64,000 bases of DNA from Pelagomonas calceolata (taxonomy: Eukaryota): positions 4,960,001 to 5,024,000 of the forward strand of contig CAKKNE010000005.1 of assembly GCA_918797485.1 (NCBI GenBank), given 5' to 3'. The notes under the pieces were generated by a model. That model worked only from the letters and a program-made list of their open reading frames with translations, searched no databases and had not been told where the DNA came from. Position 1 is the stretch's first letter. The number at the start of each line of letters is the position of its first letter. A program made the translations under genes and the position numbers. Shown here piece after piece: positions 4,587 to 63,263 of the stretch.

Positions 4587-4608
4587 GCTAGTGTCTTACT
4601 GCCGCTAG
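4587..4608 (+). promoter_or_regulatory. CTAG-TGTCTTAC intergenic motif copy
   Basis: GCTAGTGTCTTACTGCCGCTAG; 169 bp from ATG 4418(-) and 168 bp from ATG 4776(+). Confidence 0.8.
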
Positions 4609-4775
4609 GACCGATCCCGGGGCCTTTGTCTCGTGTGTGCGCCTGCTCTGCGCTTTGATGGTCCCAGATTGTATTCACGGGAGTTATTGATCCTGTTCTC
4701 TCGTTTGCCGACCGCTGGTTGCCCACGCGCTGCACCCCAGGCTGCACCACTACCACGCCGCTCCAAGGGAACCGC

Positions 4776-5660
4776 ATGCGCAGCCGCGAAAAGATGTACC
4801 AAGCTTTCGCGCGGAACGACCCTGAGCTGCGCGCGCGGCGCAAGCTCGAGCGGGCGGCCGCGCGGCGCCGCAACGACCAGAACTGGGGCGCCATCTGGGC
4901 CGCGCCCGCAGCGGCGCCCGAGCCTGTCGCAGTGGTGCCGCCGCCCGCATCGCCTGACGACGCCGCGGCGCCGGCACCCGCGCCCGAAACCGCGGCTAGT
5001 GACGCCGAGCCAGCGGCGGCACTGGTTGCGCTTTTGCGAGCACGTGACGAGCCGGCGGCGGCGGCGGCGCTCTCGCACGAGGAAGCCGCGGCGCCACCGT
5101 CATTACACGACGACGCCGAGCCCGCGGCGGCGGAGCCGTCGCACTCGCCGCGTGACGACGCCGCCGCAAAAGCAAGAGCCTTCGCCCAGAAGCGCCAGCA
5201 GCACTACAACATGGCCGGGCTCCTAGGAAGGAAGTGGGATGAGGAAGACGAGATGGAGGACGACGACGCAGCGCCACCGCCACCACACGACGACGCCGCG
5301 GCGCCGTCGCCGCCGCCACCCTCGGAAGACGCCGCGCCACCACCGCCGCCGCACGAGTCGGACGACGAGTCCCCGCCGCTCCGCCTCCCGGCGACGGGCC
5401 AGACGGGCACGCAGTGGTCGCAGTGGACGACGGGCCCGGCGTCGCAGCGCGCGGCGTCGCAGTGGGCGTCGCCGCCGCCGCCGGAGTGGGACGACGCGCT
5501 CCGGCGGCGCCTGCGCGCCGCGGCGCCGGTCGACGCCGCGAACGCGGCCTGCGTGGCCTACGCCGCCGACGAGCGCGCGCGCGCCGCGCTGCCGACGATG
5601 AACGTGTCGCGCGGGGACGTGGACGTGCTGTTCGCGCCCGAGGAGGGGGCTTGGGACTAG
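4776..5660 (+). CDS. Low-complexity Pro/Ala/acidic protein with a phosphatase inhibitor-2-like segment
   Basis: Open frame from ATG 4776. FAQKRQQHYNM resembles the FxxKRKxHYNE helix of PP1 inhibitor-2. Confidence 0.55.
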   Translation: MRSREKMYQAFARNDPELRARRKLERAAARRRNDQNWGAIWAAPAAAPEPVAVVPPPASPDDAAAPAPAPETAASDAEPAAALVALLRARDEPAAAAALSHEEAAAPPSLHDDAEPAAAEPSHSPRDDAAAKARAFAQKRQQHYNMAGLLGRKWDEEDEMEDDDAAPPPPHDDAAAPSPPPPSEDAAPPPPPHESDDESPPLRLPATGQTGTQWSQWTTGPASQRAASQWASPPPPEWDDALRRRLRAAAPVDAANAACVAYAADERARAALPTMNVSRGDVDVLFAPEEGAWD

Positions 5661-5701
5661 GTATGTGAATGTATCTTATGACAGGGGCGCGCGTGGCACG
5701 T

Positions 5702-7346
5702 TCAGTCCATGCCTGGTATTTTGATATGCATGAGAACTGCAAAGCGCCCCTCGGCGGCCTCGCCGAAGTTGACGAAGATGATGCCGTCTTCTAGGGCAGT
5801 TCGCTCGTGGAAGACGTTCGTGTCAATCTTGAGTTCAATCGCCCCCTCGCCGGAGAGGAGGGCGGCGCCCGGCCGCGTGCCTTTGACCGAGGGAATGCCG
5901 ACATAGTAATGAGTTGGATACGGATTCCGTCTGTGCTGAGGAGAATCGTGTTGATGCGTCTGCGGATTGAGTCGTAACTCTGTGGGCATCGCAATGTCGA
6001 CTCGCGTGGCCCTGAGGAGCGTGAAGAGACTTTGCGTCGAAGTCCTTGAGGGGTTTCAAAACGCCATTATCTGTCTGAGGGACGGCGTCCTGGTCCAGAC
6101 TCACAAGTGGCACATTATTTTCCGCCATCACTCTCAACAGCTCGGCGTAGGTCGTGAGAGGCGGCCGCGAGGAGTCGTGGCACTCCGCCCGAAAGTCAGC
6201 GTCACCTAGCTTTCCTATTTTTTGTTCAAACTGGTTGTGCGGTTTCGGGACTTTGTTCGTCCACGCCGTGGGCAGGCGGTGGTCGGAGGCGACGGATCCC
6301 AGGACGAGGCGCAGATCGGCGGCCATCGCCTCGTAGTCATCGGGCGTCAGCGGTTGAGGCGTCTCATTAGTACCCAAAAAGTTGTTGCTAACGACGTGAT
6401 GTTGTACGAGGGAGACATTGGTCACAACAACGGTCAACCGCCGCCCTTTCAGATGATCGAAGAGCGCGCCGAGCGAGTATTTGGTGATCTGAGTGAGCTG
6501 CGCGCGGTCGCAGGGCCCCTTGCCGTTGGCTTCGTCGACGGTCAGCACGCGCGAGTGCGTCATGGCGAGCCCGCGCGAGAGGTCGTCCTGCTCCATCTGC
6601 GAATACCCTAACAGCGTCGTCGCGCCCTCTTTTTGCGCGTCGGACCACGTGGCCGGGCACCGGAAGATCTGGACGTTGTCCGATGCTCCGCCAGGCGGTC
6701 CAACTGGAAGAGATTTTGGTCCGCCAACCGACTGCCGAGCGTGGCGGAACTCGACGGACTCCGCACACCGCTGGAGGAGCTCGCGCGTGAGATTAGCAGC
6801 TTTCCCCGCTTTCTGCCGCGCGATCAACTCCTTCTTGACCGCCTGATCGTTGAGGCCGTCCGACGGGCGGCAGTACAGGTGCTCGAGCCAAGCGCGCGGC
6901 GTGGCTCGGTTTATCGCCGCGGGCCGCGTCACGACGGCCTTGTAGTCCAGGTTCATGGTCTTGCAAACTAAAGGAACCGCACTAGAATGTTTTATGAGCG
7001 TGTCGACCGCGGCGGCCGCACTGCGCTTGAGGACGCCGCGCGACAAGGGCACGTCGTAGTACATACCTGCCACGATGCGCACCGGTTTCGGCGGCACTGG
7101 ATCGTCGATCTCATCGGCCCGGAAGTACTGATGCGGCTGGGCGCGTAGCGCGTGCCGCTCGCCGCTCTTGTCACTGACGCACACTAAATATTCGAGGACC
7201 TTATGTCTTGTGTCGCCGCGTAAACGGCAGTACGGAAGCGGCTTACAGATGATGTTCGCGCCTTCTTCGGTGTTCACGTAAAATGCCGCGTTCGCGCCAT
7301 ATTTTGCGAGGTGCTGCGCCGCCGTTAGCCGTTCCTTGGGCGGCAT
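5702..7346 (-). CDS. Hypothetical protein (503-aa ORF 5835..7346), 3' end possibly frameshifted
   Basis: Long ORF of normal composition starting MPPKERL. After ~6030 protein-like sequence appears in other frames (ORFs 5791..5994 and 5702..5989). Confidence 0.55.
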
Positions 7347-7627
7347 ATTTTTTACCGCGCCGCTGTATGGATGAAACTTCTTTAGCGCCTCGGCGTTGAG
7401 CTTCTTGGCCGACGGCTAGCGAGCGCGCTGCTTCTACACGCTCCTTTACGAAGCGCGAGCGTGTGCCTGAGAGCACCAAGGCCTCTCCTTGCTGTTTAGC
7501 TACGTAACTTGTACGAGCGCTTCCGAGCGCGTGCGTGGGCTTGAGAGCTGGTGTTTAGCACGCGTTAGAGCACCGCGCGGCCGTGCTGTCGCTGAGTTTG
7601 GTTGTGCGTGTGGCCTGTTTGTTGTTT

Positions 7628-7650
7628 CTAGTGTCTTACTGGCCGCTAGC
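7628..7650 (+). promoter_or_regulatory. CTAG-TGTCTTAC intergenic motif copy
   Basis: CTAGTGTCTTACTGGCCGCTAGC upstream of 7346(-) and 7823(+). Confidence 0.8.
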
Positions 7651-7822
7651 CTTTATGCTGGAAAGAGTGAAACGCGGCACGTGCGGCGTTTGGACGTCGG
7701 TTGTTGCCGAAAGACGCCGCTACAGTGAGGAGATCAAGCTCCGGTGAAACTCCGATTGGAGCGGTGCCGCATAAAAAAAAATAGAGAGGGCTACCACAAG
7801 CCCAGCATGTCCAGGTTGATTT

Positions 7823-8092
7823 ATGCACAGGTTTCTCGTCGAGTTGTCGGACGGCGAGTACGCGCTGGAGCGCGCGCCGGATGCAGTCGGCGGCTACTGT
7901 ATCCTGAGCTACACGCCGGGCCCGCCGGGCTACGTCAGCATCGTCGTCGTCAAGCGGGCCGGCTCGGATAACCAGGCCGGCCGCGGCTGCTGCGTCCAAT
8001 CGGCGGACGAGGCGCTCCTGCCGTCGAAGCCGTCCTCGGAGACGCTCCTTGAGTTCTCGGAGGCGTCGTCTTCTCCGGCGGCGGCGGCGTGA
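7823..8092 (+). CDS. Small hypothetical protein, probably a last exon
   Basis: GC3-rich frame FLVELSDGEYALER... begins after an acceptor-like TTGATTTATGCACAG (ends 7830). True start uncertain. Confidence 0.4.
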   Translation: MHRFLVELSDGEYALERAPDAVGGYCILSYTPGPPGYVSIVVVKRAGSDNQAGRGCCVQSADEALLPSKPSSETLLEFSEASSSPAAAA

Positions 8093-10383: not shown

Positions 10384-12368
10384 TCAGTTGAGGTCCCGCA
10401 GCGCCGCCTTGACGCGCGCCGCCGCCGCGTCGAGGTCGCGCCGCCGCTCCTCTCTCAGAGTCCGGCGGCGCCGCTCGGCGTACGACCGGGCGTGCGGCGG
10501 CGCCTTCCGCGACTCGGCCTCGAGCAAGTCCCGCTGCACGTTCAGCTCCAGCAGCTTTCTTTCAAGAGGAGCGCGCCGCGCCGCGTGGGCCTCGTCGCGT
10601 GTCGTCGCGAAGGGCGCGCCGTCGCGGGGCGAGAAGGGCGTCGGCGCGCCGGCGAGCCGCGGAGCCGCGGGCTCGGGGCCGACTTGGGGCGGCCGGTAGC
10701 CCGCGGCGTGCTTGCTGTGCTGGGCGGGCGCGAACGCGGCGAGGGGCGTCGGGCCGGCGGCCAACCGCTGAGAGGGGCTTCCGGGAGGCTGATGTGAGTT
10801 TGGGCGAGGCGGCGGCGGCGGCGGCGCGAGGTCCGCCGACGCGCGGAGGCGCGAGGTCCTCACGTCCGCGTCGCGCGGCGGCGCCGCCCGCTCGCTCCGC
10901 AAGCGAGCGATCTCGGCGGCGTTGCGGCGCACCTCCTCGCCGAGCGCGTCGTGGGCCGTCCGGAGATCCGCATGCGCGCGGCGCCAGCCGTCGACGGCCG
11001 CGCGCGCCTCCGCCGCCGCGGCCTCGGCGCGGGCCGCGCGCGCGTCCGCCTCCGCGCGCGCGTGGTCCGCGTCGCGCCGCTGGAGCCCGGCGCGCTCGAG
11101 CGCGCCGGCCGTCGACCTGTGTGGAAATCAAAATTTTACGGCGCGTATCCAGGTCGGCCGCGTGCACCCGACACACTGGTTGATTTCCACACAGCCGTCG
11201 ACGCGACGCGGTCGTCAGCGTCGCGTGCTGACGCCTCGAGTGCCGCGACGCGGCCCTGCAAGGCCTCGACGGCGACGGCGTCGCGGCCGCGCGCGGCGGC
11301 CGCCTCGACCGCGTCGTCGCGGAGCTGATCTATTAAAGTCCGCGCGCGGGCCAGCTCGTCGTTTAACGTGCGCGCCTCGGCCTCGGCGTCGAGCTTTACC
11401 TGGCGGTCGCGCCGCGCCTGGTCTCTCAAAGCGGCCGCCTCGCGCTCGGCGGCGTCGACGCGCCGGCGCAGCGTCTGCAGCTCCGCGTCGCGGTCGCGCG
11501 ACGCGCGCAGCGACTCGCGCGACGCGCGGGGGTTGAACGGCTCCTCGCGCGATGCGCGCGGGTTCGGTTCCGGTTCCGGTTCCGCCGGCGCGGCCGGCGC
11601 CGGCGCCGGCGCCGCGTCCCACGCGGCCGCCCGGCCCGCCTGGCGCACGGCGACGGGCAGCCGCGCGGGGCCGAGGCGCGGCCCCGCGGCGTAGTTTGAC
11701 AGGGGCACGGGACCCGGCCGGTCGTACGCGTCGTCGGGCTCGTAAGGTTTTTGCGTTCGTGGCGGGAATACGTCGCCCAAGCCGCCGGCGTGAGGTACGG
11801 GCGACGGCGGCGGCGAGTTCCGCACGCGCCCGCCCGGCCGGAAGGCCTCGGGCGACGGCGCCGCCGGTTTTTCAATGGAGGGCGACCGCGGCTTCCACAT
11901 CGTGCGGTGGCGCGCCTCCGGCGAGTCCGCCTTGGGCGGCGCCTGCCACGCCTTGGGCGAGGCCGGCGGGCTGTTGGCCACGGGCCCGCCGCTCCGAAAG
12001 GCCTCGGGCGAGGTCACGCCCACGGCCGCGGCGGCGGCGGCGAGCTCCTTGACGACGATGGGCGCCGGCTTCTTCCGCGGTGAGGATGTGGCGACGGGCG
12101 ACGGCGGCGGCGTCTCGTCGAGGTCCACAGGCGGCGGAGGCGTGTCGTTGGCCACGGTGTCCACGAGGCTCGACGCCGTGGCGTAGGCCGCGCGGGCCGT
12201 CGCCGTCAGGGTCTCCGCGATGGTTGGCTGCGCCTCCTCGACGGTCGGCTCGGCGTCGAGCGCGACGACCTCGACAGTGTCGTGCACGTCGTCGTTGTCC
12301 GCTTTTTGAAAGGGCAGGAACTCCGAGTTGCCTTGCAGTTCTCCTTCGTCGCCTTTGTCGTCGGCCAT
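10384..12368 (-). CDS. Pro-rich/coiled-coil hypothetical protein, 2 exons (12368-11203, 11116-10384; 632 aa)
   Basis: Removing the introner intron 11117-11202 joins ORF 11136..12368 in frame to ORF 10384..10932 (..RVASTAGALERAGLQRR..). Confidence 0.75.
11117..11194 (-). mobile_element. Introner element IE1 (78 bp) forming GT-AG intron 11202-11117
   Basis: TIR CTGTGTGGAAATCAA / TTGATTTCCACACAG; perfect 8-bp TSD CCGTCGAC at 11109-11116 and 11195-11202. Confidence 0.92.
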
Positions 12369-12563: not shown

Positions 12564-12586
12564 GCTAGCGGCCTGTAAGACACTAG
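12564..12586 (-). promoter_or_regulatory. CTAG-TGTCTTAC intergenic motif copy
   Basis: Reverse complement CTAGTGTCTTACAGGCCGCTAGC; 196 bp upstream of ATG 12368(-). Confidence 0.8.
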
Positions 12587-13693
12587 GGGAAACCGCATTA
12601 ATCCATACAATAGGTGTTTAAGCATGCACCCACGCGTGTCCCGTCTCGCCGCCCGTCTCGCGCTTTGCGTCGGCGCAAAAGCCCTCTGAGGCGGCGTCTG
12701 AGAGGCAAAATATCAGCCTAAATAGCGCGCGCTACAGCGCTGCTCCGAAGCTTTGGGCTTCTCCGGGAGCCTATCCAGCGAGGACTGCTCGCCGCTGCGC
12801 TGCGCCAGCTCTCAGCGCGCCGCCGCGGCTCTCCTGCGCCAGCACAGCTGTGTTTGCAGACATGCGCTCTAGTGTAGCGTGCCACGGCCACGAGATGGCC
12901 GACAATAAAAAAAACATGACGCCCGAGTAGCGCCAGAGGCCACACGAAAGTGTGGCCGCAAAAGAAAGAAAAAAAACTCGACGCCAACCAGAGCTGCTGG
13001 CGCCGGCTCCTCTATGTGCAAGGGTGACACGAGAACTGTGACGGCTCGACGACGAGCGGCTACGGGATAAGGCGCCGCGCGCAAGGAAGGAACGGCGGCG
13101 CCGCCACTGCCCACGATCACTTAGTATGTCCGTCCGTGATTCACGCCGCTGGACTTTGCTTCCTCTTGGGTGACAATGTTTACCTGATAACCGGGTGATC
13201 ACGTGGCCGTCGGAAAAGTGGTCGGGCTGAGTGGCGGTGGTCTGCTCCGAAACGTTCTCCTCCGAGGCGCCTCCTCGAGAAAGGACATCTCCGCGGGCCC
13301 GCACACGTGCTCGCAGTGCTCAGGTTAAGGGCACGCCAAGCTCTTCGCGTTCAGTGGATGGTTTCCGCAGAAACCGGATCAAGTCTCGTCCCTGCTGTGA
13401 GGGAACGAGCTGTAAGGAGGATGGGAGAGGAAGGACGGCACGCCTCCTCCAGAGCGCGATGATCGCATCGAGCACGCGGCCGCGGGGTTGTGCGAGATCA
13501 GGAGGGGGGCGCGCGCGGTGCTTGAGACGTGGGCCTGGCATAGAGCGTCGCCGTGGGCTGGTGGTCGGCGACGGTCTTCGCGCCTACGAGCGATTGAGAG
13601 TACTCATGGACGCGGCCTGCGGGGTAAACAAGATCGTGAGCTGAGTTACTGCCGTGCGGCGCACCTCAAATGGCCTCGACGACGTCAGACGCC

Positions 13694-15433
13694 GGCCGCG
13701 CCGTGTTGAACAAGGTCAAGGCGCTTCGAGGGCGGCGTGTTATGTGATCGTGACCTGTACTCGGCGTCGCCGTGAGCAAGGGCGACGTCGGATCTACCAA
13801 GTCGTGATCTAATGCTGATCTCGCGCCTCGACGCGGGCCGCGCCGTCCTGGACCAGGTCAAGGCGCTTCGAGGGCGGCGTGTTATGTGATCGTGACCTGT
13901 ACTCGGCGTCGCCGTGAGCAAGGGCGACGTCGGATCTACCAAGTCGTGATCTAATGCTGATCTCGCGCCTCGACGCGGGCCGCGCCGTCCTGGACCAGGT
14001 CAAGGCGCTTCGAGGGCGGCGTGTTATGTGATCGTGACCTGTACTCGGCGTCGCCGTGAGCAAGGGCGACGTCGGATCTACCAAGTCGTGATCTAATGCT
14101 GATCGCGCTCGACGCTGGGCGCGCCGTCCTGGACCAGGTCAAGGCGCTTCGAGGGCGGCGTGTTATGTGATCGTGACCCGTACTCGGCGTCGCGGTGACC
14201 AAGGGCGACGTCGGATCTACCAAGTCGTGATCTAATGCTGATCTCGCGCCTCGACGCGGGCCGCGCCGTCCTGGACCAGGTCAAGGCGCTTCGAGGGCGG
14301 CGTGTTATGTGATCGTGACCTGTACTCGGCGTCGCCGTGAGCAAGGGCGACGTCGGATCTACCAAGTCGTGATCTAATGCTGATCTCGCGCCTCGACGCG
14401 GGCCGCGCCGTCCTGGACCAGGTCAAGGCGCTTCGAGGGCGGCGTGTTATGTGATCGTGACCCGTACTCGGCGTCGCGGTGACCAAGGGCGACGTCGGAT
14501 CTACCAAGTCGTGATCTAATGCTGATCTCGCGCCTCGACGCGGGCCGCGCCGTCCTGGACCAGGTCAAGGCGCTTCGAGGGCGGCGTGTTATGTGATCGT
14601 GACCTGTACTCGGCGTCGCCGTGAGCAAGGGCGACGTCGGATCTACCAAGTCGTGATCTAATGCTGATCTCGCCTCGGCGGGCCGCGCCGTCCTGGACCA
14701 GGTCAAGGCGCTTCGAGGGCGGCGTGTTATGTGATCGTGACCTGTACTCGGCGTCGCCGTGAGCAAGGGCGACGTCGGATCTACCAAGTCGTGATCTAAT
14801 GCTGATCTCGCGCCTCGACGCGGGCCGCGCCGTCCTGGACCAGGTCAAGGCGCTTCGAGGGCGGCGTGTTATGTGATCGTGACCTGTACTCGGCGTCGCC
14901 GTGAGCAAGGGCGACGTCGGATCTACCAAGTCGTGATCTAATGCTGATCTCGCGCCTCGACGCGGGCCGCGCCGTCCTGGACCAGGTCAAGGCGCTTCGA
15001 GGGCGGCGTGTTATGTGATCGTGACCTGTACTCGGCGTCGCCGTGAGCAAGGGCGACGTCGGATCTACCAAGTCGTGATCTAATGCTGATCTCGCGCCTC
15101 GACGCGGGCCGCGCCGTCCTGGACCAGGTCAAGGCGCTTCGAGGGCGGCGTGTTATGTGATCGTGACCTGTACTCGGCGTCGCCGTGAGCAAGGGCGACG
15201 TCGGATCTACCAAGTCGTGATCTAATGCTGATCTCGCGCCTCGACGCGGGCCGCGCCGTCCTGGACCAGGTCAAGGCGCTTCGAGGGCGGCGTGTTATGT
15301 GATCGTGACCCGTACTCGGCGTCGCGGTGACCAAGGGCGACGTCGGATCTACCAAGTCGTGATCTAATGCTGATCTCGCGCCTCGACGCGGGCCGCGCCG
15401 TCCTGGACCAGGTCAAGGCGCTTCGAGGGCGGC
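13694..15433. repeat. Tandem array of a 142-bp unit, ~12.3 copies
   Basis: CAAGGCGCTTCGAGGGCGGC recurs at 13717, 13859, 14001, 14140, 14282, 14424, 14566, 14704, 14846, 14988, 15130, 15272, 15414 (spacing 142 except 139 and 138). Confidence 0.97.
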
Positions 15434-18400
15434 CTGCTCTTTTACCGTTGTGACCACCACTTCAGCATCCCAAGCAAGTTCATTGGTCTCATCTGCCGCC
15501 CAAGGGGTTGAGACAACTTTGTAAGGCATGGAAGTGTCAACCTTCGGCGCGCGCGCCGGCTGCGCGGTCACTTCTACTACATCGGGCGGCGGCTGCTCTT
15601 CTACCGTTGTGGCCACTTCAGCATCCCAAACAAGTTCATTGGTCCCATCTGCCGCCCAAGGCTTTGAGACAACGTTGTAACGCACGGAAGTCGCGCGCGG
15701 CGGCTGCGCCACCAGTTCTTCTACTTCGTGCGGTGGCTGCGGCGGCAACGCGGGCTGCGACGGCTCGACTGCATCAGGGACTGCTACCTCTATCGATGTG
15801 GCCGCGTCGGGCGCCTCCTCAACAATCTCTGGTAATACGGAGTCGCACGGCTCGGTGCACTTCCGACCCCCGTCTGCACAGGTCCAGTGTGCGCCTTCAA
15901 CTACTACGGTGCCTTTCTCGCGGAGGCGCCACTGTTCACACGTGTCGCAACAGGACCATGGCCTGTCCTGTCCTGTATCGTGCCAGTAGCATTTGACCTT
16001 GTTCCCGTCGGCCGCGGTGCGGCCGTTGCCCAGCTGCTGGGCGATCTTCGGCCACTTTCCCCACATGCTGCGGAACTTCTCCTCCAACACGACTATCCTC
16101 CGCTTCTCGTCTTCGGTCAGGGGCGTTTGGTTCGACTGGAGAGACGCGTAGTGTTGCAGGACGTACCCCTGATCCCACTGTATGCCCAGCTCGTTCAAGG
16201 CTTCGGCGATATAGTTCCACGATGCCTTTGCATCAGGACGGAGCTCCTTGGCTTTCTTCACAAGTAATTTGAGGACGTCGTCGCTGCTTAGGTTAGCGAG
16301 GGCTTCTGCATCTGCGCGGGCGGCATCAATAAGTGCGGCCACGTGTGACCTGCGCTGCGCCTCGCGGCCGTCGCCGCGCTCGCTGAACGCCTGCGCTACC
16401 TGCTGCAACACATCGCGGCACTTCTCGAGTACTTCAGCAAGCTCGCGACGCTCACCGTCGCCGTCAAACAGGATCTCATATAATGACTTGTGCTGGGCCT
16501 GGAAGACCCGCTCGACCGCGGCGACCGCGGCAACCTTCTTCGCTTGGTCGTCGGCACACGACTCTACTAATTTGAGAATCGCGTCCGAGGCCAAGGCGCC
16601 GTGCATCGAGACGTCCTTCACGTGGGCCTCGAGCGGCTTCTCGACGCCGAGCGCCTTGAGATCTTCGACAAGAGCTTTGCGCTGCGCCGCAAAGGCCGCG
16701 CCGCCGCCGGCGGCGCAGTGGCCCGACCACTTCTCGACCGACGCACCCAAGGGGATGACGTGCTTCCGGGTGCGGTGGATAATGACCGCGGCAAACTCGT
16801 CTTTGACATGGCGCCGCGCCGTCGCGTGCGGGCCGCTATAAGACGGGTGGTAGCGGAGCTCTACTCTGACCTGTGTGGAAATCAACCAGTGTGTCGGGTG
16901 CACTAAGTCATTTCTCGGCGATGACGCGGCCGTGCTGGACCCGTCAAACGATGAAGAACCGCCACCGCCACGCCATCGAGCAGGCGGCGCGTCGATGGCG
17001 TGGAGGACGACGCCGTAAAATTTTGATTTCCACGCAGACTCCGACGTCGCGGCCGTCCTTGCGGTACACGAGGAATGTTCTCTCCGCGTCGACGGAAGGC
17101 AGCTTGTCGTCGCCGGTGAGGAACCACAGAACATCGCGAACGGCTTCGTCCGCTTCGGTCACCTCGACGCAGATGTCCTCGTCGCCCACGATGCAGTCCA
17201 TGGCATAGGTGTGCTGGTCAATACCGAAGACCTGTATAGGAGATTGTCGATTCCGAGCGTGAAGGCTCGTCGGCGACGTCCAGACGACCGTGCAACCTCC
17301 ACGCCATCGATGCGATCGGAGTTTTGGACTCGGAAGGCGCACCTCGATTATGGTCCCGGGCCATTCCGATTTGCGGATGGCCTCAAACAGGCGGGGCGCG
17401 CCGCGTGCAAGATCTCCCGGCCGATCGGCCGGCTCGAGGACGGCATCGTTACTTCTCGAGGGCTGCATGGTGCTGACATTAAGATTGTGGATGGTGTCGA
17501 ACCACCTGTGCGCACATCAACCAGTGAGTCGGGTGCACGGCGACGACGCGGCCGTGCTTGATAACCCGAGCGGCGAGGGACCCAGATCGCCACGCGTAGA
17601 CGTGGCGTCGATGGCGCGGAGCTCGTCGCGACGGCTCGGCGACGGTTTGATTTGTGCACTGCAAGCCACGCGGCGCGGAGCTTATCAAGGCCGGCCGCGA
17701 CCGCCTCAGCGCGCGACTGGAACTGGTCTCGGGTGAAACCTACCTGAGCTAAGACTGATAAAGCGAGGCGCTCGATGGTCTGGCAGACTCGTTCCGAGCC
17801 ATCATCTGTTCTAATGCGGGCGCAGTTCACGTCCAACAAGTTGGAAGGTGATGCGGCGTCGTCGTCGACTGCGGCCGTACGCAACCAGTGCTCGGCTTCC
17901 GTCAAAGGCTCGGTGTCGGCGCGCGCGCTAATCGCGAGGTCGCGCGCCCAGCCAGCTACTAAAACGCGCTTGCTCTTGCCGGCGCCGAGGGGTAAGGAAT
18001 ACTGGAACTTCTCGTGGGGCTTCTTGTTCGCGTCCTTGACCGCGCCAGCGCGTAGGCTTCGCTCGACCTTCTTGAGGGCCGCGAGCAGGGAGGCTTCCTC
18101 GGCGTCGTCAGTGTCTTCGTAGTAAGACCGGGCGAGGCGCTCCGCGTGCAAGCGGTCGGCCCCGCCGGCGACCGAGAGCTCCACGCACGCGGCCTCGTAC
18201 ACGTCGCGTAGGACTAATACAGCAGCGAGCGCGGGCTCTTCGCCATCGCCGCGGTACTTCCGGAACAGGGGGCCGACTTCGACTTTCGCCACCGTCGCGA
18301 GCCGAGCTAAGCGCCGCGTAAGCCCTGGTACAATCTCCTCGTCCGTGCGCAGCATCTTGGCTTCGGCCGCGCGGGCTTTTGCTACCCGCGCGGCATGATT

Positions 18401-18754
18401 GGACGCGCGCGGCACAGGAGCGGCGTCGCCTCCAGCGCCTCGCCGGCGCTTGGGCGGCGCCGGCGACTCGTCCTCCGCGTCGTCGTAGTCGTCGTCGTCT
18501 CCGGACTCGTCGTCGTATTCAGACTTGTCGTCGTCGTCGTCGTCGTGACCGTCATTCTTAGCGGCCCGCTCCAGTAACATTTTCACAGCGGCAAGGCGCT
18601 CCGGCGACGCGGCGCCCGGCGGTGGCACCGTCGTTGCCCATGCCATGGGTGCCGACTGGGCGCCGCTCGAGGCGCGGCGCGGCCCCGACCCGCTCGCGTC
18701 CTCGTTTTCCAGATCCATACGTCTTCCCCAGGCTTCAGGCATGCACGCCGCCAT
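15413..18754 (-). CDS. ~1000-aa putative chromatin protein with Myb/SANT-like domain and CW-type zinc finger, 3 exons (18754-17670, 17505-17046, 16870-15413)
   Basis: Removing two introner introns joins three ORFs in frame (exon sum 3003 nt). Myb-like LTEDEKRRIV..WPKIAQQLGNGRT..VKCYW; zf-CW WSCCDTCEQWR..WTCADGGRKC; NLS-like PPKRRR. Start codon uncertain. Confidence 0.75.
16871..17037 (-). mobile_element. Introner element IE2 (167 bp) forming GT-AG intron 17045-16871
   Basis: TIR CTGTGTGGAAATCAA / TTGATTTCCACGCAG; TSD ACTCTGAC / ACTCCGAC (1 mismatch); splicing gives ..DGRD|VRVELRY. Confidence 0.9.
17506..17661 (-). mobile_element. Introner element IE3 (second TIR subfamily) forming GT-AG intron 17669-17506
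   Basis: TIR CTGTGCGCACATCAA / TTGATTTGTGCACTG; TSD CGAACCAC / CAAGCCAC (2 mismatches); splicing gives ..RAAWFDTIHNLNVSTMQP in frame. Confidence 0.85.
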
Positions 18755-19364
18755 GGATGAGAGCACGGCGGCGCGCCGACTTTGCTCAGCGGCCTCGACC
18801 GCGCGCGCTAGGCGTCCGTGTATGTCGTAAAAGCGCTAATACAGGCGCGCCCGTAGTTCTTTTCGGCACGGTTCGGCCGGGATATATTTGCAATGAAGTT
18901 CCACAGTGATCGCGACTCAAATTTTGCGACGTGTGGACCATAAATTTGTCTCAACTGCGCCAACGAGGCTGGAAAAACCCGTTTTGATTTTGAGTCCACA
19001 CGAGAGGACAAGCGTGCGTTCACAGGTCCTCGAGCACAGACTCGTCTTTTGATTTGCCTCCAGGGCTTTCCCAAGCTGCTTCTTTGGACCCGATGGTTCC
19101 CGTAAAAAACGTCAATTACCCGATGCAGCGACGCTGGAAGGGCACTCGATGGGTGCAGTGCGCGGCGTCCGCTTTCCGTGCCTTTGTGATCTGTCTTCGT
19201 CTTAGGTCGATGGTGTTGTCATGTTTCCGGAACGGGCGGCGCGTCGTGTCTGCTTCGGCAGCGGTTCGACGAAATACTCCGAATAGCACCACAGACTGCT
19301 CGGACGGCACCCAGGTGATCTGTGTGCTGCAGGAGGGCTCGCAAAAAAGCGGCGGCAAAACCGA

Positions 19365-19386
19365 GCTAGCGGCAGTAAGACACTAG
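19365..19386 (-). promoter_or_regulatory. CTAG-TGTCTTAC intergenic motif copy
   Basis: Reverse complement CTAGTGTCTTACTGCCGCTAGC; ~610 bp upstream of ATG 18754(-). Confidence 0.75.
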
Positions 19387-19484
19387 GCATTAAGCAGCGC
19401 GCAGCGCCTGATAATCTAATAGCCGTCGTCTGAGACCTCAGGAAGGTGGGACCACATTCATTTTACGCCATCGAGGCACAACAA

Positions 19485-20903
19485 CTAAGCCCGAAGAAGC
19501 GCCGGCCGGTCGAGCCGGAACGTCTCTAAAGAAAAAGGCAGCTTCACCCCCAGCGCGAGCGCCGCCGCGGCGTCGCCGATGGCCGGGCCCATCTTGAAGG
19601 CGTGGCCCGAGCCGCCGCCCGCCAATATGATAGGCGCGCCCGCGCCAGGAACTTTATCAAGCACGTAGTGGTAGTCCGGCGTCGTCGTGTAGAGGCAGGA
19701 CTCGCTCCGGAAGGGCGTGGCTTCCAGCCCCGGGAAGAAGCTCGCCACGAAGCGTTGGTTCGCTTCGATTATGGAAGGGTCGCCTTGATGATCGTGGCTC
19801 CGCAGCGCCTTCTCATCTAATGTTTGACCGACGTGGTGCGCCGCGACCTTGACGCCCTGTGTCTTGACGATGGGGATGCCGTAGTAGCCCAAATCGCCGA
19901 GGCCGTTGTTAAGATCCGAAATAAAAACGGGCATTCTTTTATAACCGTAGACAGCTTTACTTCCTTTCGGCTTGAAGTAGGACACCGTTTCCCGCGTCAC
20001 GGTCGTGGGTACATGAAGATTGAACCACTTTTTAGCTATTGAGGTCAGCCACGCGCCCGGCGCCACGATACAACTCCGGCCGACGATCCTTTCCTTATTT
20101 CCGAGGCGCACTTCAACAGAATCGGCCCGGCGCTTTACTGAAACAACATCAGAACCCTCCCTCACGTCTACCTTAAGCTTCCGCGCGAGTTCATAAGCTC
20201 TCGCCATCGCGACCTGTGTGGAAATCAAATTTTACGGCGCGTTCGTCGCGTCGTCCTCCACGCTATCGACGCGACGCTTGCTCGATGGCGTGGCGATGCC
20301 GGTTCATCACCACTCGACGGAGCCAGTGCACCCGACACGCTGGTTGATTTCCACACAGATCGCGACGTCGGCGAACAGTACCCCAAAGTCCGGCTGGTAC
20401 AGCGCCGTCGTGTTCTTCGGGGCCGAGAACTGGGGGAAGCGCTCCTTGAGCTTCTTTCTAGATAATTTCTCGTGCGCGAGGCCCCGCTTCCGGTAAATCT
20501 TGGTAAGATCATCTAAACCGCCGTGCGAGTCATAATTTCCACCTTGCCCGGAATAGAGCGAAACGCCGCCCGTGTGGGCCAGCACCTTGCTCGTCGCATC
20601 ATTCAGTTCGCCCCAGTAGGACAGCGACAGGTACATCATGTCGACGTAAATCTCGTCGGCGTACGCGAAGCGGTAGATGCGGCCGTCGCCGTGCGACGAG
20701 CCCCGCGCGTGGCCCTCCGTGTATTTCTCGACGAGGCAGACGGTCCTGTTCTGCCTTGCTGCCGCGATGGCGGACCAGACGCCCATGACGCCTCCTCCCA
20801 CCACTACAACGTCGTACTGCACGGGCTGCGGTTTGCGCAGCCGTTGTGCTGCCAATGCTGCGAGCGCTGCTGCTGCGGCGCCGAGTCGGAGGAGTATATG
20901 CAT
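19485..20903 (-). CDS. FAD-dependent sarcosine/L-pipecolate oxidase family protein, 2 exons (20903-20367, 20213-19485; 421 aa)
   Basis: YDVVVVGGGVMG Rossmann motif, RGSSHGDGRIYR, CLYTTTPD, GGSGHAFKMGPAIG; exons join in frame across IE4. Confidence 0.9.
20214..20358 (-). mobile_element. Introner element IE4 (145 bp) forming GT-AG intron 20366-20214
   Basis: TIR CTGTGTGGAAATCAA / TTGATTTCCACACAG; perfect TSD ATCGCGAC at 20206-20213 and 20359-20366. Confidence 0.93.
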
Positions 20904-21075
20904 TGTCTTGCTTTTGCGCAGCTGATGGCTGGTGTGGCTTTTTGGCTGTGATGGCTGTGGTGGCTTTTTGTTTGGACACAGCTGTGGCAGGCGGCCTCGC
21001 AGCGATCGTGGCAAGTACTGGGCGCGTGAATAGCCCAGCTATTGCAGCTCTTCGGCCGCTCGGCGCAAAGACCGA

Positions 21076-21098
21076 GCTAGCGGCAGATAGACACTAGC
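21076..21098 (-). promoter_or_regulatory. CTAG-TGTCTTAC intergenic motif copy (variant)
   Basis: Reverse complement GCTAGTGTCTATCTGCCGCTAGC; 173 bp from ATG 20903(-) and 164 bp from ATG 21262(+). Confidence 0.75.
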
Positions 21099-21261
21099 AG
21101 GCAGCCTTGCAAAGTCCGCAAGACCGGCGTAACCACCATACCACACGCCACACGTGCTGTAATAATTGCCATTCGTTCTCTATTTCGACATGCGTCGCAG
21201 CGCGCCAGACGCGCCTTCCATGAGATAGCATAAAGCAGCCAACCCAACCCAAGACATTAGG

Positions 21262-22347
21262 ATGGCGTCGGCGCGGCGCGTAAAAGCGATGCTCTACGGC
21301 ATCGCCGCAATATCAAGCATATCGTCAGCGCAGCGCATCGAGCACCCAGGCACCGGGGCCACGAGCCCCAACGCCTACTTCGTCATGGTCGGGCCCCTCG
21401 AGCCCCAGCGCGCCTACCACCCCTGGCTCGTGTCCGCGGTATCGATGGCGAACACCTTGAAAGACCACGGGTCGACGAGCGACTTTGTCCTTTTATTAGC
21501 GACGAAGCGGGATGGGCGGCCGCGCGAGACTGTAGATCTACTAGAAGAAGAAGAAGCCACTTTGCTCAAAACGGGCTGTCGGTGGCGCTACGCCCAACCA
21601 CCCGGTAAGAAACACCTGGCGGGCTACCACATGGGCCACTACAAATTGTTAGCGTGGCAGCACGTCGAGTATGCAACCATACAACTGTTGGACGCCGATT
21701 TACTGCCCGTCAACAACCTAGATCCGCTCTTCTCATTGACAAAAGCTTTGAACACCGAAGTCGTAGCGTGCCCGGGCAAGGTCGCTCCATTGAATGCAGG
21801 ATGGGTTTTAATACGACCATCACTGACAACGTTCGAAGGTTTACTGAAAACGCTCGATATAATGAGAAGGACGAATCGCGACGCGCCCTACGGCCATGCT
21901 ATGAAGACGCCCTGGCGCGCGGCGACGGGGGCCGCGGGCGGCAGCGACTGGCGCTTCTTCGATGTCTTCGGGAACCAAGGGCACATGTACGACTACTTTC
22001 GGTTCGAGGCGAAGAGCTTGAGCGTCATCACGCAGTCGACGCAGAACGGCACGCGGGTCTTCTCATATAAAGATGAGGAGCGCATCCTTGATGAATTGCC
22101 GTCCGTGTTGGACGCGGCGTTTCCGTGCCCGTTCCCAGTGCGGGGCAAGCGCGCGCCCAGTGGGTTGGCCTACCACCACTTCACGGGGTCGCGGAAGCCC
22201 TGGCGGCCCTTCACGCCGTCGAACGCGAAGTACCGGGCCTGGTACGCGGCGGCGTCGCGGCGGGGCGCGGACCTGGGGATTCTGGAGGGGTTGTTTCCTT
22301 CCGTGCCGCGGGACGTGCTGCGGGACGCGGCGACTCGTGCTTTGTAA
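21262..22347 (+). CDS. Glycosyltransferase family 8 (glycogenin-like fold) with N-terminal signal/anchor
   Basis: KLLAWQHVEY..LLDADLL (DxD), LNAGWVLIRPS, GNQG, HFTGSRKPW. Confidence 0.85.
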   Translation: MASARRVKAMLYGIAAISSISSAQRIEHPGTGATSPNAYFVMVGPLEPQRAYHPWLVSAVSMANTLKDHGSTSDFVLLLATKRDGRPRETVDLLEEEEATLLKTGCRWRYAQPPGKKHLAGYHMGHYKLLAWQHVEYATIQLLDADLLPVNNLDPLFSLTKALNTEVVACPGKVAPLNAGWVLIRPSLTTFEGLLKTLDIMRRTNRDAPYGHAMKTPWRAATGAAGGSDWRFFDVFGNQGHMYDYFRFEAKSLSVITQSTQNGTRVFSYKDEERILDELPSVLDAAFPCPFPVRGKRAPSGLAYHHFTGSRKPWRPFTPSNAKYRAWYAAASRRGADLGILEGLFPSVPRDVLRDAATRAL

Positions 22348-22452
22348 TAATTTTGGTTTTGTGATGGATGACCTCGCGTCGGCGGCGTGCATGCAAGCCA
22401 GCATTTGTCCTGAACTGTGTAAACAAGGAAAATCATGATCTTACAGGAATAC

Positions 22453-23573: not shown

Positions 23574-23597
23574 GCTAGCGGCCAGTAAGACACTAGC
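23574..23597 (-). promoter_or_regulatory. CTAG-TGTCTTAC intergenic motif copy
   Basis: Reverse complement GCTAGTGTCTTACTGGCCGCTAGC; 168 bp from ATG 23406(-) and 177 bp from ATG 23774(+). Confidence 0.8.
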
Positions 23598-26439: not shown

Positions 26440-26464
26440 GCTAGTGTCTTACTGGGGCGCTAGC
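26440..26464 (+). promoter_or_regulatory. CTAG-TGTCTTAC intergenic motif copy
   Basis: GCTAGTGTCTTACTGGGGCGCTAGC; 160 bp upstream of ATG 26624(+). Confidence 0.8.
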
Positions 26465-29925: not shown

Positions 29926-29948
29926 CTAGTGTCTTACAGGCCGCTAGC
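29926..29948 (+). promoter_or_regulatory. CTAG-TGTCTTAC intergenic motif copy
   Basis: CTAGTGTCTTACAGGCCGCTAGC; 202 bp upstream of ATG 30150(+). Confidence 0.8.
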
Positions 29949-32228: not shown

Positions 32229-32251
32229 CTAGTGTCTTACACGACGCTAGC
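32229..32251 (+). promoter_or_regulatory. CTAG-TGTCTTAC intergenic motif copy
   Basis: CTAGTGTCTTACACGACGCTAGC between ATG 32149(-) and 32383(+). Confidence 0.75.
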
Positions 32252-40984: not shown

Positions 40985-41083
40985 AGCGTGTGCCCGGATC
41001 GACCGACCGGACATAAGTAGCTAGTAGCAACATTCTTACGCGCGCCAGCCACGCGCCCGCCGCCGCGGCACTTTACGTCTCAT

Positions 41084-44597: not shown

Positions 44598-44611
44598 CAC
44601 TGTTCACATTA

Positions 44612-45787: not shown

Positions 45788-46540
45788 ATGCCCGTCCGCG
45801 TCGTCCCCGTCCCAGCCCTCGAGGACAATTATATGTACGTCGTCATCGACGAGGAAACGAAGCAGTGTGGAGTAATTGACCCCGTCGACGCGGCCGCAAT
45901 ACAAACCGCGGCCGAGCGCGAGGGCGCGACGATCACGGCCATCCTCACGACGCACTCGCACTGGGACCACGCCGGCGGCAACGTCGAGCTTAAAAAAAGG
46001 TGCGCGTCGGTCGAGGTCGTGTACGGCGGCGTGGGTGACGGCGTCGCCGGCTGCACGAAGGAACTGGGAGACGGCGACACGTTCGCCCTGGGCAACTCGA
46101 CGGTGCAAGTAATCTCGACGCCATGCCACACGGCGGGCCACATTTGCTACTTGGTCGACGGGAACGTCTTCACCGGCGACACGATGTTCGTCTCAGGCTG
46201 CGGCAACTTCAATAGCGGCACGCCGGCGCAGATGGCTCAGGCTTTTCAGAAGCTCCTGGCCTTACCGGACGAAACGAAGGTCTGGGTCGGCCACGAGTAC
46301 ACCTGCAAGAACTGTAGGTTCGCTTTGTTCGCGGATCCGGATAACGAGGAGATCCAGCGAAGGTTAAAATGGGCCGAGTCGTGCCACTCGTGGACCGTGC
46401 CCTCGACCATTGGGGATGAAAAGCGCTGCAACCCCTTCGCGCGCCTCGGTAGTTTGCCAATGTTCGACAACGAGCCGGGCGGTCCGGCCGAGCGCATGCG
46501 CCTCGTGCGCAAGGCCAAGGACGACTGGGGCCGGCGGTAA
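45788..46540 (+). CDS. HAGH: Hydroxyacylglutathione hydrolase (glyoxalase II)
   Basis: DNYMY, THSHWDHAGGN, TPCHTAGH, FTGDTMFVSGCG, GHEYT, VPSTIGDEK..NPF. Confidence 0.95.
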   Translation: MPVRVVPVPALEDNYMYVVIDEETKQCGVIDPVDAAAIQTAAEREGATITAILTTHSHWDHAGGNVELKKRCASVEVVYGGVGDGVAGCTKELGDGDTFALGNSTVQVISTPCHTAGHICYLVDGNVFTGDTMFVSGCGNFNSGTPAQMAQAFQKLLALPDETKVWVGHEYTCKNCRFALFADPDNEEIQRRLKWAESCHSWTVPSTIGDEKRCNPFARLGSLPMFDNEPGGPAERMRLVRKAKDDWGRR

Positions 46541-46626
46541 TTTACATGTGTACTAACAGTGCCCGGTTAAGCAGGGAGGCGTCGGCTCCGCGGCTAGGCG
46601 GCCTAGCTCTAAGCAAAGCAACAATA

Positions 46627-47701: not shown

Positions 47702-47724
47702 GCTAGTGTCTTACAGCACGCTAG
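47702..47724 (+). promoter_or_regulatory. CTAG-TGTCTTAC intergenic motif copy
   Basis: GCTAGTGTCTTACAGCACGCTAG; 254 bp from ATG 47448(-) and 177 bp from ATG 47901(+). Confidence 0.8.
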
Positions 47725-49220: not shown

Positions 49221-49565
49221 GTGGTACTAAGTTCCGGTGGGGGAGCTCGTGCTTACTCGCGGCCCGGGGCGCGCGCCGTCAATGAAAACAGGCCCAAGAA
49301 AGCACCGCCCCGCGGGTACTGCGTCCGAGCTGGCTTTCTATTGCAGTGCTAGGATTCTGGAGCCCTGCGGTCGCCGATTCTGATGCACGATCGTGCGGGG
49401 CCTCCAACCTCGCGGCCGCCGTGAATGCATTTGCTGTTCACTACGTTCCGGCTCACGCACGCAGTGGAATTATGCAAGGATAGCTTGAAACACTCAATCA
49501 CTCCCTACCGCCGTCTCCTATCACCACGCCCCCAGCCAAACTCGCCCCCACGCCTCACTGCAGCC

Positions 49566-54315: not shown

Positions 54316-54339
54316 GCTAGTGTCTTACAAACCGCTAGC
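54316..54339 (+). promoter_or_regulatory. CTAG-TGTCTTAC intergenic motif copy
   Basis: GCTAGTGTCTTACAAACCGCTAGC; 186 bp from ATG 54130(-) and 244 bp from ATG 54583(+). Confidence 0.8.
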
Positions 54340-58517: not shown

Positions 58518-58967
58518 GGTTGTAGCTGGTCTTTGTTACAGCGCAGTTGGTTGGTGGTGGAGCGAGGTATCAGCCTGCTCGCGATGTGTTTTTTTGCGTC
58601 AAACGTAGCTTGCAAAAGCTCCAATTGCGATGGAAGGGCCTCGGAGCAAAAAGTTGCCTCGCTAACTAAAGGCACTAGCACTAGCATCCGTCCGAGCGCG
58701 ATCCAAACGTCCCCGGACCCGTCGCCCCCGCAGCCAGGCGTCCCTGGGCGTCGCGGGCCTCCTGGCGGGTGCGGCACCCACCAAACAAAAGCGGCAGGCA
58801 CGCGGCCAAAGCTGCCCCGCCGGCGCCCGCCGGAGCCAACGCCAGCGGACGACGGCCGCGCCAGCAGGCCGACTCGACTCCGGGAACCGACGGCCCGCGG
58901 GGCTGCCCGCCGGAAGCAGCACCAGGACAAACAAGCAGCCCAAAAAGACTTGGCTGCCCGCCGGACC

Positions 58968-61842: not shown

Positions 61843-62040
61843 GGTTGCGGCGCGCAGCGGTTGCAGCACAGTGTCTGGGAGAGCGGTGAGTGCTTAAGCG
61901 CTGAGGAGTGTAGGACTGCTCGAAAAAGCACGGCAGTGCTGCTTGCACAGCGAATGCGCCACGTTTATGTGGTCAAACCGTGCCAGTCGTGCGCGCAGCC
62001 GCTTTATCGCCTGCAATCGAGTCTGTCTTGCAAGGGATCC

Positions 62041-62063
62041 CTAGTGTCTTACAGGCCGCTAGC
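62041..62063 (+). promoter_or_regulatory. CTAG-TGTCTTAC intergenic motif copy
   Basis: CTAGTGTCTTACAGGCCGCTAGC. Confidence 0.8.
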
Positions 62064-62133
62064 GATTCCTAAACGCGCCAGAGTCCTGAAAGCCGCGCCC
62101 CGGAGCGGTACCCCCTCAACTGCGTTGGAGCTT

Positions 62134-62157
62134 GCTAGTGCCTTACAGGCCGCTAGC
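62134..62157 (+). promoter_or_regulatory. CTAG-TGTCTTAC intergenic motif copy (second in same spacer)
   Basis: GCTAGTGCCTTACAGGCCGCTAGC. Confidence 0.78.
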
Positions 62158-62520
62158 TTCCCAAGCTTTTTAACTTGTTTGCAGGCACGGCGCCGCAGAA
62201 GCTAAATACCCGCACGTTAGGCAATTTGGGCCCTCCCTCCAATCTCGATGGGGGCACCTCCGTGGCAAGCTAGTGTCGTCGTGTGCTTAGGATCCCCCTG
62301 GGACCCAACAGGCCTAGTTTCGGGACCCCTGGGCCTAGTTTCGCCGCGCCCGTCCAAATCACCTGCACTCTTTGCCAGAGTCTTTGGCTCACCCTTGACG
62401 GGTTTTCCACCCTACCCTCACCCGCACCCTTCTCCCAGACTGGGCACCCTTCACCCTTACCCTCGACGGGTAAACGCGGGTAAAAGGGTGCCACCCTTGC
62501 CCTTTTGCTGCCCTGCGCGC

Positions 62521-63189
62521 ATGCCGTCGCCACCACGACCCGACGTCGACATCGAGGGCTCCGACGCGGAACTAGAACGGACCATGTGCACGCCGGTCCA
62601 GCGCCACGCGCCGGCGCGCGACGCGCCCTGGTCGGCGCCGGGCGCGGTGTTCAGGCCCATCTGCGCGAGCCCGCTCACGCCGCCCAACGCGACGTCGGAG
62701 ATCAACCGCCACGCGGCGCGCCACGCGGTCGAGTGCTATGTGGTTTATGGCGCGAAGCTCGCGGCGCGGCGCGGCGGCAAAGGCCCTTTTTCGCCCGGCG
62801 CCGCGGCCGTCGCCGCGGCGCGCGCGAAGTGCCGCCTGCTCTGCCGCGAGGCCGGGACGCGCCGCGCGTTACGACGGCAGCTCGTCAAGGCCGTCGACGC
62901 GCGGCGCGGCAAGGAGTCGCGCGCCAATGGGCTTCTGAGGGAGCTCCTCTCAGAATTACGGGAGCTGGACGGCATCGGCTCGCCGGAGCCGTGCACGCCG
63001 TTCTCGCCGAAGCGGATGAACTTGCGGGGCGCCGTGCGCGTGCCCCTGCCGCCTTCCGAAATTGATCGAGTTGGCGCCGAATTGAGTGAGATGCGAGGCG
63101 GGCTGTCGCGGCGGGACGTCGGGATCGCGGTCGTCGTCGCCGGGCTCGGGGCATTGACGCTCGCGGCGACGACAGTTTTCGGCGCATAA
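62521..63189 (+). CDS. Hypothetical tail-anchored protein
   Basis: ATG 62521; C-terminal hydrophobic VGIAVVVAGLGALTLAATTVFGA. Confidence 0.6.
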   Translation: MPSPPRPDVDIEGSDAELERTMCTPVQRHAPARDAPWSAPGAVFRPICASPLTPPNATSEINRHAARHAVECYVVYGAKLAARRGGKGPFSPGAAAVAAARAKCRLLCREAGTRRALRRQLVKAVDARRGKESRANGLLRELLSELRELDGIGSPEPCTPFSPKRMNLRGAVRVPLPPSEIDRVGAELSEMRGGLSRRDVGIAVVVAGLGALTLAATTVFGA

Positions 63190-63239
63190 CCTTTTTGTTT
63201 TGGTGACCTGTCGCCGCGATGGCGTCGAGGAGTCGCTCG

Positions 63240-63263
63240 GCTAGTGTCTTACAGGCCGCTAGC
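63240..63263 (+). promoter_or_regulatory. CTAG-TGTCTTAC intergenic motif copy
   Basis: GCTAGTGTCTTACAGGCCGCTAGC; 273 bp upstream of BET3 ATG. Confidence 0.8.

Follow-up and report, generated by a model that had tools for sequence, protein, structure and literature searches.

A long motif recurs in a 64,000-nucleotide stretch of Pelagomonas calceolata DNA (assembly GCA_918797485.1, contig CAKKNE010000005.1, positions 4,960,001 to 5,024,000, forward strand; this whole stretch is called the window). It stands on the 5' side of genes in either orientation and has been kept at homologous promoters. The motif is a real, lineage-wide and apparently undescribed promoter element, notable for its length, exactness and reach. 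The explanation we favour, to which we give a probability of roughly 0.65, is that it is the binding site of a putative abundant general regulatory factor (GRF) resembling Reb1 or Abf1, and a predicted nucleosome barrier.

The Motif and Its Copies in the Window

Copies were counted with the exact pattern CTAGTGTCTTAC-N4-7-GCTAG, using 100 dinucleotide shuffles as control, which gave 13 matches in the window and 0 across the shuffles. A two-part profile, trained only on 125 copies from metagenomes and then run over the window, finds 16 sites (the 13 exact ones and those at 9301, 21077 and 62135) with scores of 22.9-44.2 bits. No score lies between 6 and 22.9 bits, and the best chance score in 5 Markov shuffles was 10.0. 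An earlier note on this DNA had listed 15 near-identical copies; all are found where it placed them, 13 of them exact and two (its 21076 and 62134) variants. The copies which it called degenerate fared unevenly: the one at 9300 passes the profile, the one at 62269 scores -0.7 and is unsupported, and the one at 58661 is a decayed copy at most, because its score of 6.0 is below the best chance score. The copies in the window are:

4588..4608, + strand: motif copy, exact; divergent promoter of abhydrolase and IPP-2, ATGs at 180 and 178 bp
7628..7649, + strand: motif copy, exact; divergent promoter, kept in homologous locus L107
9301..9318, - strand: short variant copy, found by profile; divergent promoter of a gene of no assigned function and ERCC1
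12565..12586, - strand: motif copy, exact; upstream of the gene that starts at 12368 on the - strand
19366..19386, - strand: motif copy, exact; 100 bp past the DAO stop codon, no ATG within 450 bp
21077..21097, - strand: variant copy, found by profile; divergent promoter of DAO and the gene at 21262
23575..23596, - strand: motif copy, exact; divergent promoter of CLP1 and the gene at 23774, RNA 5'-end pile at 23677
26441..26463, + strand: motif copy, exact; upstream of Hsp70-TPR, RNA contig start at 26580
29926..29947, + strand: motif copy, exact; in a tandem gap, 5' of the gene at 30150
32229..32250, + strand: motif copy, exact; divergent promoter, kept in homologous locus L024
35585..35606, - strand: motif copy, exact; divergent promoter of RPP30 and DUF1995, RNA contig ends at 35475 and 35752
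47703..47724, + strand: motif copy, exact; divergent promoter of a gene of no assigned function and Nuf2
54317..54338, + strand: motif copy, exact; divergent promoter of MYND-TPR and an ion channel
58661..58685, - strand: possible decayed copy; divergent promoter, score 6.0, not above chance
62041..62062, + strand: motif copy, exact; followed by common modules A and B
62064..62110, + strand: modules A and B, a secondary cassette; present downstream of 8 of 140 sites
62135..62156, + strand: variant copy with one change, found by profile; 94 bp after the copy at 62041
63241..63262, + strand: motif copy, exact; upstream of Bet3/TRAPP

The consensus of the metagenome copies is GCTTG-CTAGTGTCTTAC-N4-6-GCTAG-C, about 28 bases in total. 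Spacers of 4, 5, 6 and 7 nt are present in 36, 81, 9 and 4 of 130 copies, a set which still contains 2 viral and 1 AT-rich row, and the commonest spacer, AGGCC, in 26 of the 130. The middle had been described as variable and 3-5 nt long; it is variable, but measures 4-6 nt, rarely 7, as delimited here. Reading outward from either end gives CRCTAGC-W, and the motif is a pseudo-palindrome in which two CTAG-containing ends, 17-19 bp apart, enclose an asymmetric TCTTAC core. The 17-bp core is invariant in 13 of the 16 window sites. All 13 TGTCTTAC octamers of the window are inside full sites, as are 140 of 144 in the window and metagenome loci together, the loci having been picked for having the motif.

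The motif carries about 34 bits of information (35 sites outside the scan anchors), whereas 13 bits are needed for 16 sites in 64 kb; this comparison follows Schneider's Rsequence and Rfrequency. The surplus of roughly 20 bits points to a multi-part binder or a copying mechanism, and it raises the question of how the copies arise.

Some other repeated sequences were seen near the motif or resemble it. The heptamer GCTGCCC is over-represented within 150 bp of the motif in both orientations (41 vs. 14.6 expected) and is a possible further cis-element. A look by eye at 11 window gaps, 10 of them motif-less, gave no second common motif. A 37-bp repeat at 218-254 and 46585-46621, whose copies are 95% alike, has two CTAG-like ends 15 bp apart and CAGGCCGC in common with the motif spacer; it lies on the 3' side of genes and was not found in the metagenome loci.

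Position Relative to Genes

The earlier note had placed all copies outside coding DNA, and none of 93 sites lies inside a called open reading frame (ORF), though ORFs make up 58% of those loci; the motif is outside called introns too. The gaps between genes were divided by type, excluding 9 short same-strand gaps as likely introns. In the window and loci together, sites occupy 29 of 40 gaps between divergent genes, 24 of 32 between tandem genes and 2 of 41 between convergent ones. The fair figures are those of the window only, because the loci were chosen for holding a site: 7 of 11 divergent, 4 of 7 tandem and 0 of 11 convergent gaps (11/18 for divergent plus tandem vs. 0/11, Fisher p = 0.001). 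Placement relative to genes is thus non-random. That the motif is never found between convergent genes is correct for the window and very nearly correct for the other loci, where 2 of 30 such gaps, both long, hold one.

The distance from motif centre to ATG has a median of 187 bp (interquartile range 144-233, n = 82), and the orientation in tandem gaps is the same as that of the downstream gene in 11 cases and opposite in 13. On our own gene map of the window, a site lies no more than 450 bp from 24 of 41 start codons, so that the statement that most promoters carry the motif stands at about 60%. The genes adjoining the motif (83 ORFs) belong to functionally mixed Pfam families and form no regulon. 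A housekeeping bias, hinted at by the window, was rejected, as the neighbours with the motif (83) and those without it (35) are both mixed.

Sites occur once every 4 kb in the window; in the loci, away from the anchors, the figure is about once every 6 kb at most (19 sites in 119 kb). Roughly 4,500-8,000 sites in 32 Mb can be extrapolated from these densities.

Occurrence and Conservation in Related Lineages

A metagenome scan gave at least 123 further loci (L004-L126) among the matches listed, which stem from 1 of its 64 parts, and about 9,000 motif-holding stretches are estimated from it. Left out of the counts were L001-L003, L125 (GC 0.37), the duplicate contigs L076 and L077, and L127-L139. 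The Pfam-identified genes of the window have the same order as Pca_5p27220-27590 in the P. calceolata chromosome 5 gene table (PMC9481584, supplement), with GC contents of 63.4% for the window vs. 63.6%; the earlier note had rightly taken the DNA for that of a pelagophyte. The protein encoded beside the motif copy of L040 has the same sequence as a named protein of P. calceolata. Of ten protein clusters looked up, 3 bear the name of P. calceolata and 7 are without a species name, and one motif-adjoining protein has 61-67% identity to its Aureococcus and Chrysophaeum homologues. The motif is shown for Pelagomonas-like lineages only. In prokaryote genomes there are 13 matches in 596 Gb. Five of these (L128, L130, L134, L135 and L138) are on contigs of metagenome-assembled genomes with 53-66% GC and have full consensus flanks and spacer; judged by their sequence, they look like mis-binned Pelagomonas DNA.

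Homologous promoters were found by comparing the flanks of 140 sites. Three pairs, L024 and window 32229, L107 and window 7628, and L019 and L115, have proteins that are 94, 95 and 88% identical and fourfold sites identical at 19/28, 10/17 and 27/32 positions. The 17-bp core is the same in both members of the homologous promoters. Of the twelve 60-bp flanks in six homologous pairs, 11 show 40-52% likeness, compared with 44 ± 5% for unrelated flanks, and one shows 71%. In the pair L042 and L086 (72% identity over 36 amino acids) the site occupies the corresponding place in reverse orientation. The pairs L061 and L093, probably MYND-TPR paralogues, and L069 and L073, which have repeat C in common, were excluded as orthologues. 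Sites are thus kept in the homologous promoters of relatives; the pairs were found because both members carry the motif, and they show persistence and give no loss rate.

Compared with window 31519-34743, locus L024 is a relative without the cupin gene (32383-34566) in which the site is retained, and the motif is there flanked directly by a small gene on the - strand and by the 3' end of RPP30. A block that is near-identical between lineages over some 100 bp (L057:790-900 and L097:135-250) begins about 40 bp from the motif; it has no Rfam match and is a possible novel RNA or short exon.

Flank Geometry and RNA Ends

The left and right flanks were read outward independently, with positions counted from the motif edge. 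Tracts of T4 in the outward direction are concentrated at +5-30 relative to +35-60, with 21 vs. 6 among 136 left flanks and 31 vs. 4 among 137 right flanks, and the AT-rich zone beside the motif ends at about +80. The initiator-like (Inr-like) sequence CAYT forms bands at +60-100 and +130-160 that are enriched 1.8- and 2.0-fold on the outward strand, compared with 0.9- and 1.3-fold on the inward strand. The CG profile has a peak at +112 (z 5.1), a trough at +150 (z -7.5) and a second peak at +293 (z 4.0). These features wash out if the ATG is taken as the anchor, and they are still seen on 62 flanks without a called outward gene. The CG profiles of the left and right flanks correlate at 0.71, and none of 200 jitters gave a value as high.

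The window has a CpG observed/expected ratio of 1.32, and the P. calceolata gene table includes a C5-methylase-SNF2 (Dnmt5-type) gene, Pca_1p15180. Periodic DNMT5 methylation restricted to linkers has been described in algae (PMC9246332, in excerpt), and by analogy the CG peaks may be linker or border positions.

Stranded RNA-seq over 17001-37000 fits the called strands of the divergent pairs there. Four RNA 5' ends, the pile at 23677 and the contig ends at 26580, 35475 and 35752, are found 80-145 bp outside the motif. The earlier note had proposed a promoter element or a chromatin barrier. A barrier or general-factor site fits better than a core promoter element, because orientation is ignored and the motif stands upstream of the few mapped 5' ends. 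A core element of the INR, FPR or DPEP type was rejected, as the orientation is 11:13 and the 5' ends are 80-145 bp away.

How the Motif May Act

We suggest that a dimer or multi-domain protein would grip both CTAG ends through a flexible link; such a two-ended grip would account for the spacer of 4-6 nt and for the near absence of half-sites. The putative factor, together with the outward T-tracts, would keep about 250 bp nucleosome-free, and remodellers would set a +1 nucleosome on either side, spanning roughly +125 to +280 as counted from the motif edge. A CG-rich linker, predicted to be Dnmt5-methylated, would sit near +293. RNA polymerase II would initiate at the Inr-like CAYT sites in the two bands. 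One site could serve both genes of a divergent pair, and a site in a tandem gap could also block read-through from the upstream gene. The orientation freedom of the site is judged from placement. Candidates for the factor class, and candidates only, are the 15 Myb entries (PF13921) of the P. calceolata gene table; C2H2 (PF00096) has 0 among the table entries listed, and InterPro C2H2 entries do exist.

A more far-reaching form of this hypothesis can be stated, which we regard as possible but doubtful. The motif would be a lineage-specific 34-bit element acting as the master organiser of several thousand promoters in an alga that ranks among the most abundant eukaryotes of the ocean. It would be read by a new DNA-binding protein or complex, set bidirectional initiation, and be an anchor for Dnmt5 linker methylation and nucleosome phasing. 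Its sites would be seeded by cassette copying and would flip in place via the inverted ends.

A number of observations weigh against a GRF-like barrier. The mapping of start sites is thin: it comprises a single 5' pile, made up of 7 of 20 molecules, plus the ends of three contigs, and two contigs of a run whose RNA nature is a guess read through the motif copies at 21077 and 32229. The CAYT bands were picked after the pooled data had been viewed. As regards long-range phasing, CG at the predicted positions +475 and +655 is not significant (z 1.1 and -1.5) and the CG periodogram has its best period at 120, without a clean peak at 170-190 bp. The CG autocorrelation of the window and loci gave no nucleosome-length peak either. 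About 40% of the genes are without the motif, including those of nine consecutive motif-less promoters at 37132-46540 (TPT, CRAL-TRIO, PsaF, glyoxalase II and others). The information content is far beyond the need of one ordinary factor, and the homologous pairs were selected through the motif in both members.

Alternative Explanations

The strongest competitor, which we consider rather improbable, is an ordinary orientation-free proximal activator site of the CCAAT or ZNF143 kind that would bring in RNA polymerase II in both directions, the symmetric base pattern reflecting the composition of initiation regions and 5' untranslated regions and no nucleosome barrier. Placement, orientation and conservation fit it equally well, the CG trough at +150 could be due to the CAYT bands alone, CG phasing over longer distances lacks significance, and the ZNF143 site is a precedent at human bidirectional promoters (see below). 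The geometry of the flanks argues the other way: the two CG peaks (+112 and +293) are seen also beside the motif where no outward gene is called, as is the AT step at +80; the peak at +293 is well inside coding DNA, and T-tracts are present on either side of the site. Less probable still is that the motif is a conserved relic left by a promoter cassette of the copy-and-paste kind or by an old mobile element, whose copies settled close to gene starts and persist through spread or gene conversion and not through a protein bound at each site. It has in its favour that a 34-bit site would hardly arise thousands of times through point mutation, that 12 of 140 sites are in longer common cassettes (modules A/B in 8, family C in 4), with one A/B copy in a convergent gap (L033), and that a single spacer sequence is found in 26 of 130 copies. 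However, 128 of the 140 sites are without either cassette, and the core is intact while the flanks fall to chance identity. There is no excess of target site duplications (TSDs) of 4-9 bp at 134 sites, 3 bp being marginal (p = 0.013 in 7 tests), and no pair of terminal inverted repeats (TIRs) around the cassette copies in 4 regions; the motif is thus not part of a repeat bounded by TIRs or TSDs. Among the P. calceolata table entries listed there is one transposase gene and no Helitron entry. A mobile past may account for the birth of the sites and yet not be what they do today; given the surplus information, some origin by copying is likely, which does not conflict with their now serving as binding sites.

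The two remaining explanations are both very improbable. A structural hairpin or cruciform, serving as nicking site or replication origin like REP/HUH targets and the origins of single-stranded viruses, is suggested by the motif ends, which can form 6-7 base pairs enclosing a conserved loop; the loop region may loosely resemble the circovirus nonamer. This reading is already largely refuted. There is no covariation at 8 flanking pair positions (134 sites), a test in which the fixed core is unable to show any, and folding is no better than that of shuffles (z -0.64, median -3.7 kcal/mol). Viral contigs have 0 matches to the tighter pattern and 3 AT-rich matches, with a 7-nt spacer, to the looser one; no Rfam match at gathering score was obtained from 15 sources (the window and 14 loci), and one site per 4-7 kb seems dense for origins. 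An inverted repeat seen in L078 is in coding-like DNA away from the motif. The motif could also be primarily a boundary, i.e., an insulator, terminator roadblock or marker of methylation-free islands, its closeness to gene starts being a side effect of genome compactness. The DAO contig of an RNA run ends at 19383, 4 nt inside the site at 19366, half of the tandem sites (12 of 24) are within 164 bp of the upstream stop codon, and the geometry is seen on gene-less sides too. Against this, the motif is near-absent in convergent gaps (2/41), where termination boundaries are most needed, and is commonest in divergent ones. The GRF-like binding site remains the explanation we prefer.

Cassettes beside the Motif

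The flanks, said in the earlier note to be unrelated, are so at most sites, but the consensus extends further out, with GCTTG to the left and C-W to the right, and a few sites have longer sequences in common. Modules A and B lie downstream of 8 of 140 sites and family C upstream of 4, both at variable spacing. A and B are found at window 62064-62110 and in L020, L033, L044, L045, L056, L078, L108 and L013, also after variant motif copies. Family C is a CTAG-rich repeat of up to about 100 bp (window 37340-37400 and 49340-49385; L044:3130-3215; L073:2170-2260; L084; L121; L045:4329). In the window, L044 and L073 it occupies tandem gaps, about 100-220 bp past a stop codon and on the same strand as that gene, and it often precedes the main motif at variable distance; it is possibly a terminator, insulator or mobile cassette. 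Both cassettes may be composite cis-elements or a vehicle copying new sites. Telomere-like degenerate runs of CCCTA and CCCTT were seen downstream of motif plus A and B (window 62400-62480; L033, about 4040-4070).

A Helitron 3' end has a terminal CTRR followed by the T of an A/T target. This origin was rejected, since C is the base after CTAG at 117 right and 101 left ends, out of 140 each, and T at 8 and 0.

Other Features of the Window

A tandem array at 13543-15539 consists of about 14 units of 142 bp, near nucleosome core length, which are 95-98% alike. Introner-like repeated introns are present at 11116-11206, 16870, 17505, 20206-20358, 30771-30956, 36953 and 57102, and RNA reads show splicing at two of them (20205-20359 and 30770-30957). 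Plus-strand RNA at 17001-18334 runs opposite long minus-strand ORFs, and at 19128-19258 there are many partly matching reads from WD40-like repeats elsewhere.

Novelty and Possible Uses

No description of the motif turned up. Its strings gave no algal paper by title or abstract in the open literature, and neither did the open-access literature on Pelagomonas and pelagophyte promoters and motifs give a description. The words "motif", "promoter" and "intergenic" are absent from the main text of the P. calceolata genome paper (PMC9481584), and the portion of its supplements covered has no passage on CTAG or a promoter motif. The word "motif" is likewise absent from the main-text portions covered of the preprints 10.1101/2024.10.30.620910 (pangenome) and 10.1101/2025.04.21.649811.

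The promoter grammar of pelagophytes is almost unknown; in the portions covered, the main text of two genome papers never uses the word "promoter". For a eukaryote it is unusual that a single long and near-invariant site should stand at about 60% of the genes. Such a site is a fixed anchor for testing nucleosome phasing and the periodic DNMT5 methylation described for algae in the excerpted PMC9246332. The motif could be used as bait for the factor, as a synthetic promoter part, as an aid in annotating gene starts and possibly as a tag for Pelagomonas contigs in metagenomes.

Comparison with Known Systems

The motif resembles miniature inverted-repeat transposable elements (MITEs), Helitron ends and introner elements in being short, high-copy and CTAG-containing with inverted ends. 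It differs from them in having no TSD, no element body, and C rather than T after CTAG, in never being found in ORFs or called introns, and in being kept in place across lineages. The sites of REST (RE1) and CTCF are long, high-information and bipartite, tolerate a change of spacer and have partly been spread by mobile elements. They are mostly distal or have repressive or architectural roles, whereas the Pelagomonas motif is promoter-central in a gene-dense alga.

Among stramenopiles, oomycetes have a genome-wide promoter element, the 16-nt combined INR+FPR motif, which is orientation-biased (5.9:1) and located at the start site of about 13% of the genes (PMC3599244, in excerpt). The CAYT bands beside the Pelagomonas motif resemble the oomycete INR (YCAYTYY) as given in that excerpt. 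The motif itself is unlike the oomycete elements in being orientation-free and apparently about 80-150 bp upstream of the start.

The human ZNF143/Staf binding site (SBS) is also a long site at bidirectional promoters; it has 18 bp and occurs in 46.7% of 839 such promoters (PMC3082894, in excerpt). As described in that excerpt the SBS is degenerate and non-bipartite, unlike the motif, and has no sequence match to it.

The GRF sites of yeast are reported to give rise to symmetric arrays (PMC8163841, in excerpt) and to have roadblock activity (PMC5052057, in excerpt). Like the sites of Reb1, Abf1 and Rap1, the Pelagomonas motif is found at many unrelated promoters, in either orientation, beside poly(dA:dT) and, judging by the few mapped 5' ends, probably upstream of starts. 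The yeast sites of Abf1 and Rap1 are bipartite. We know of no sequence likeness between the motif and the yeast GRF sites, and the motif is much longer and more exact (about 34 bits). Yeast divides the GRF role among several factors, whereas in Pelagomonas a single motif stands at about 60% of the window's genes.

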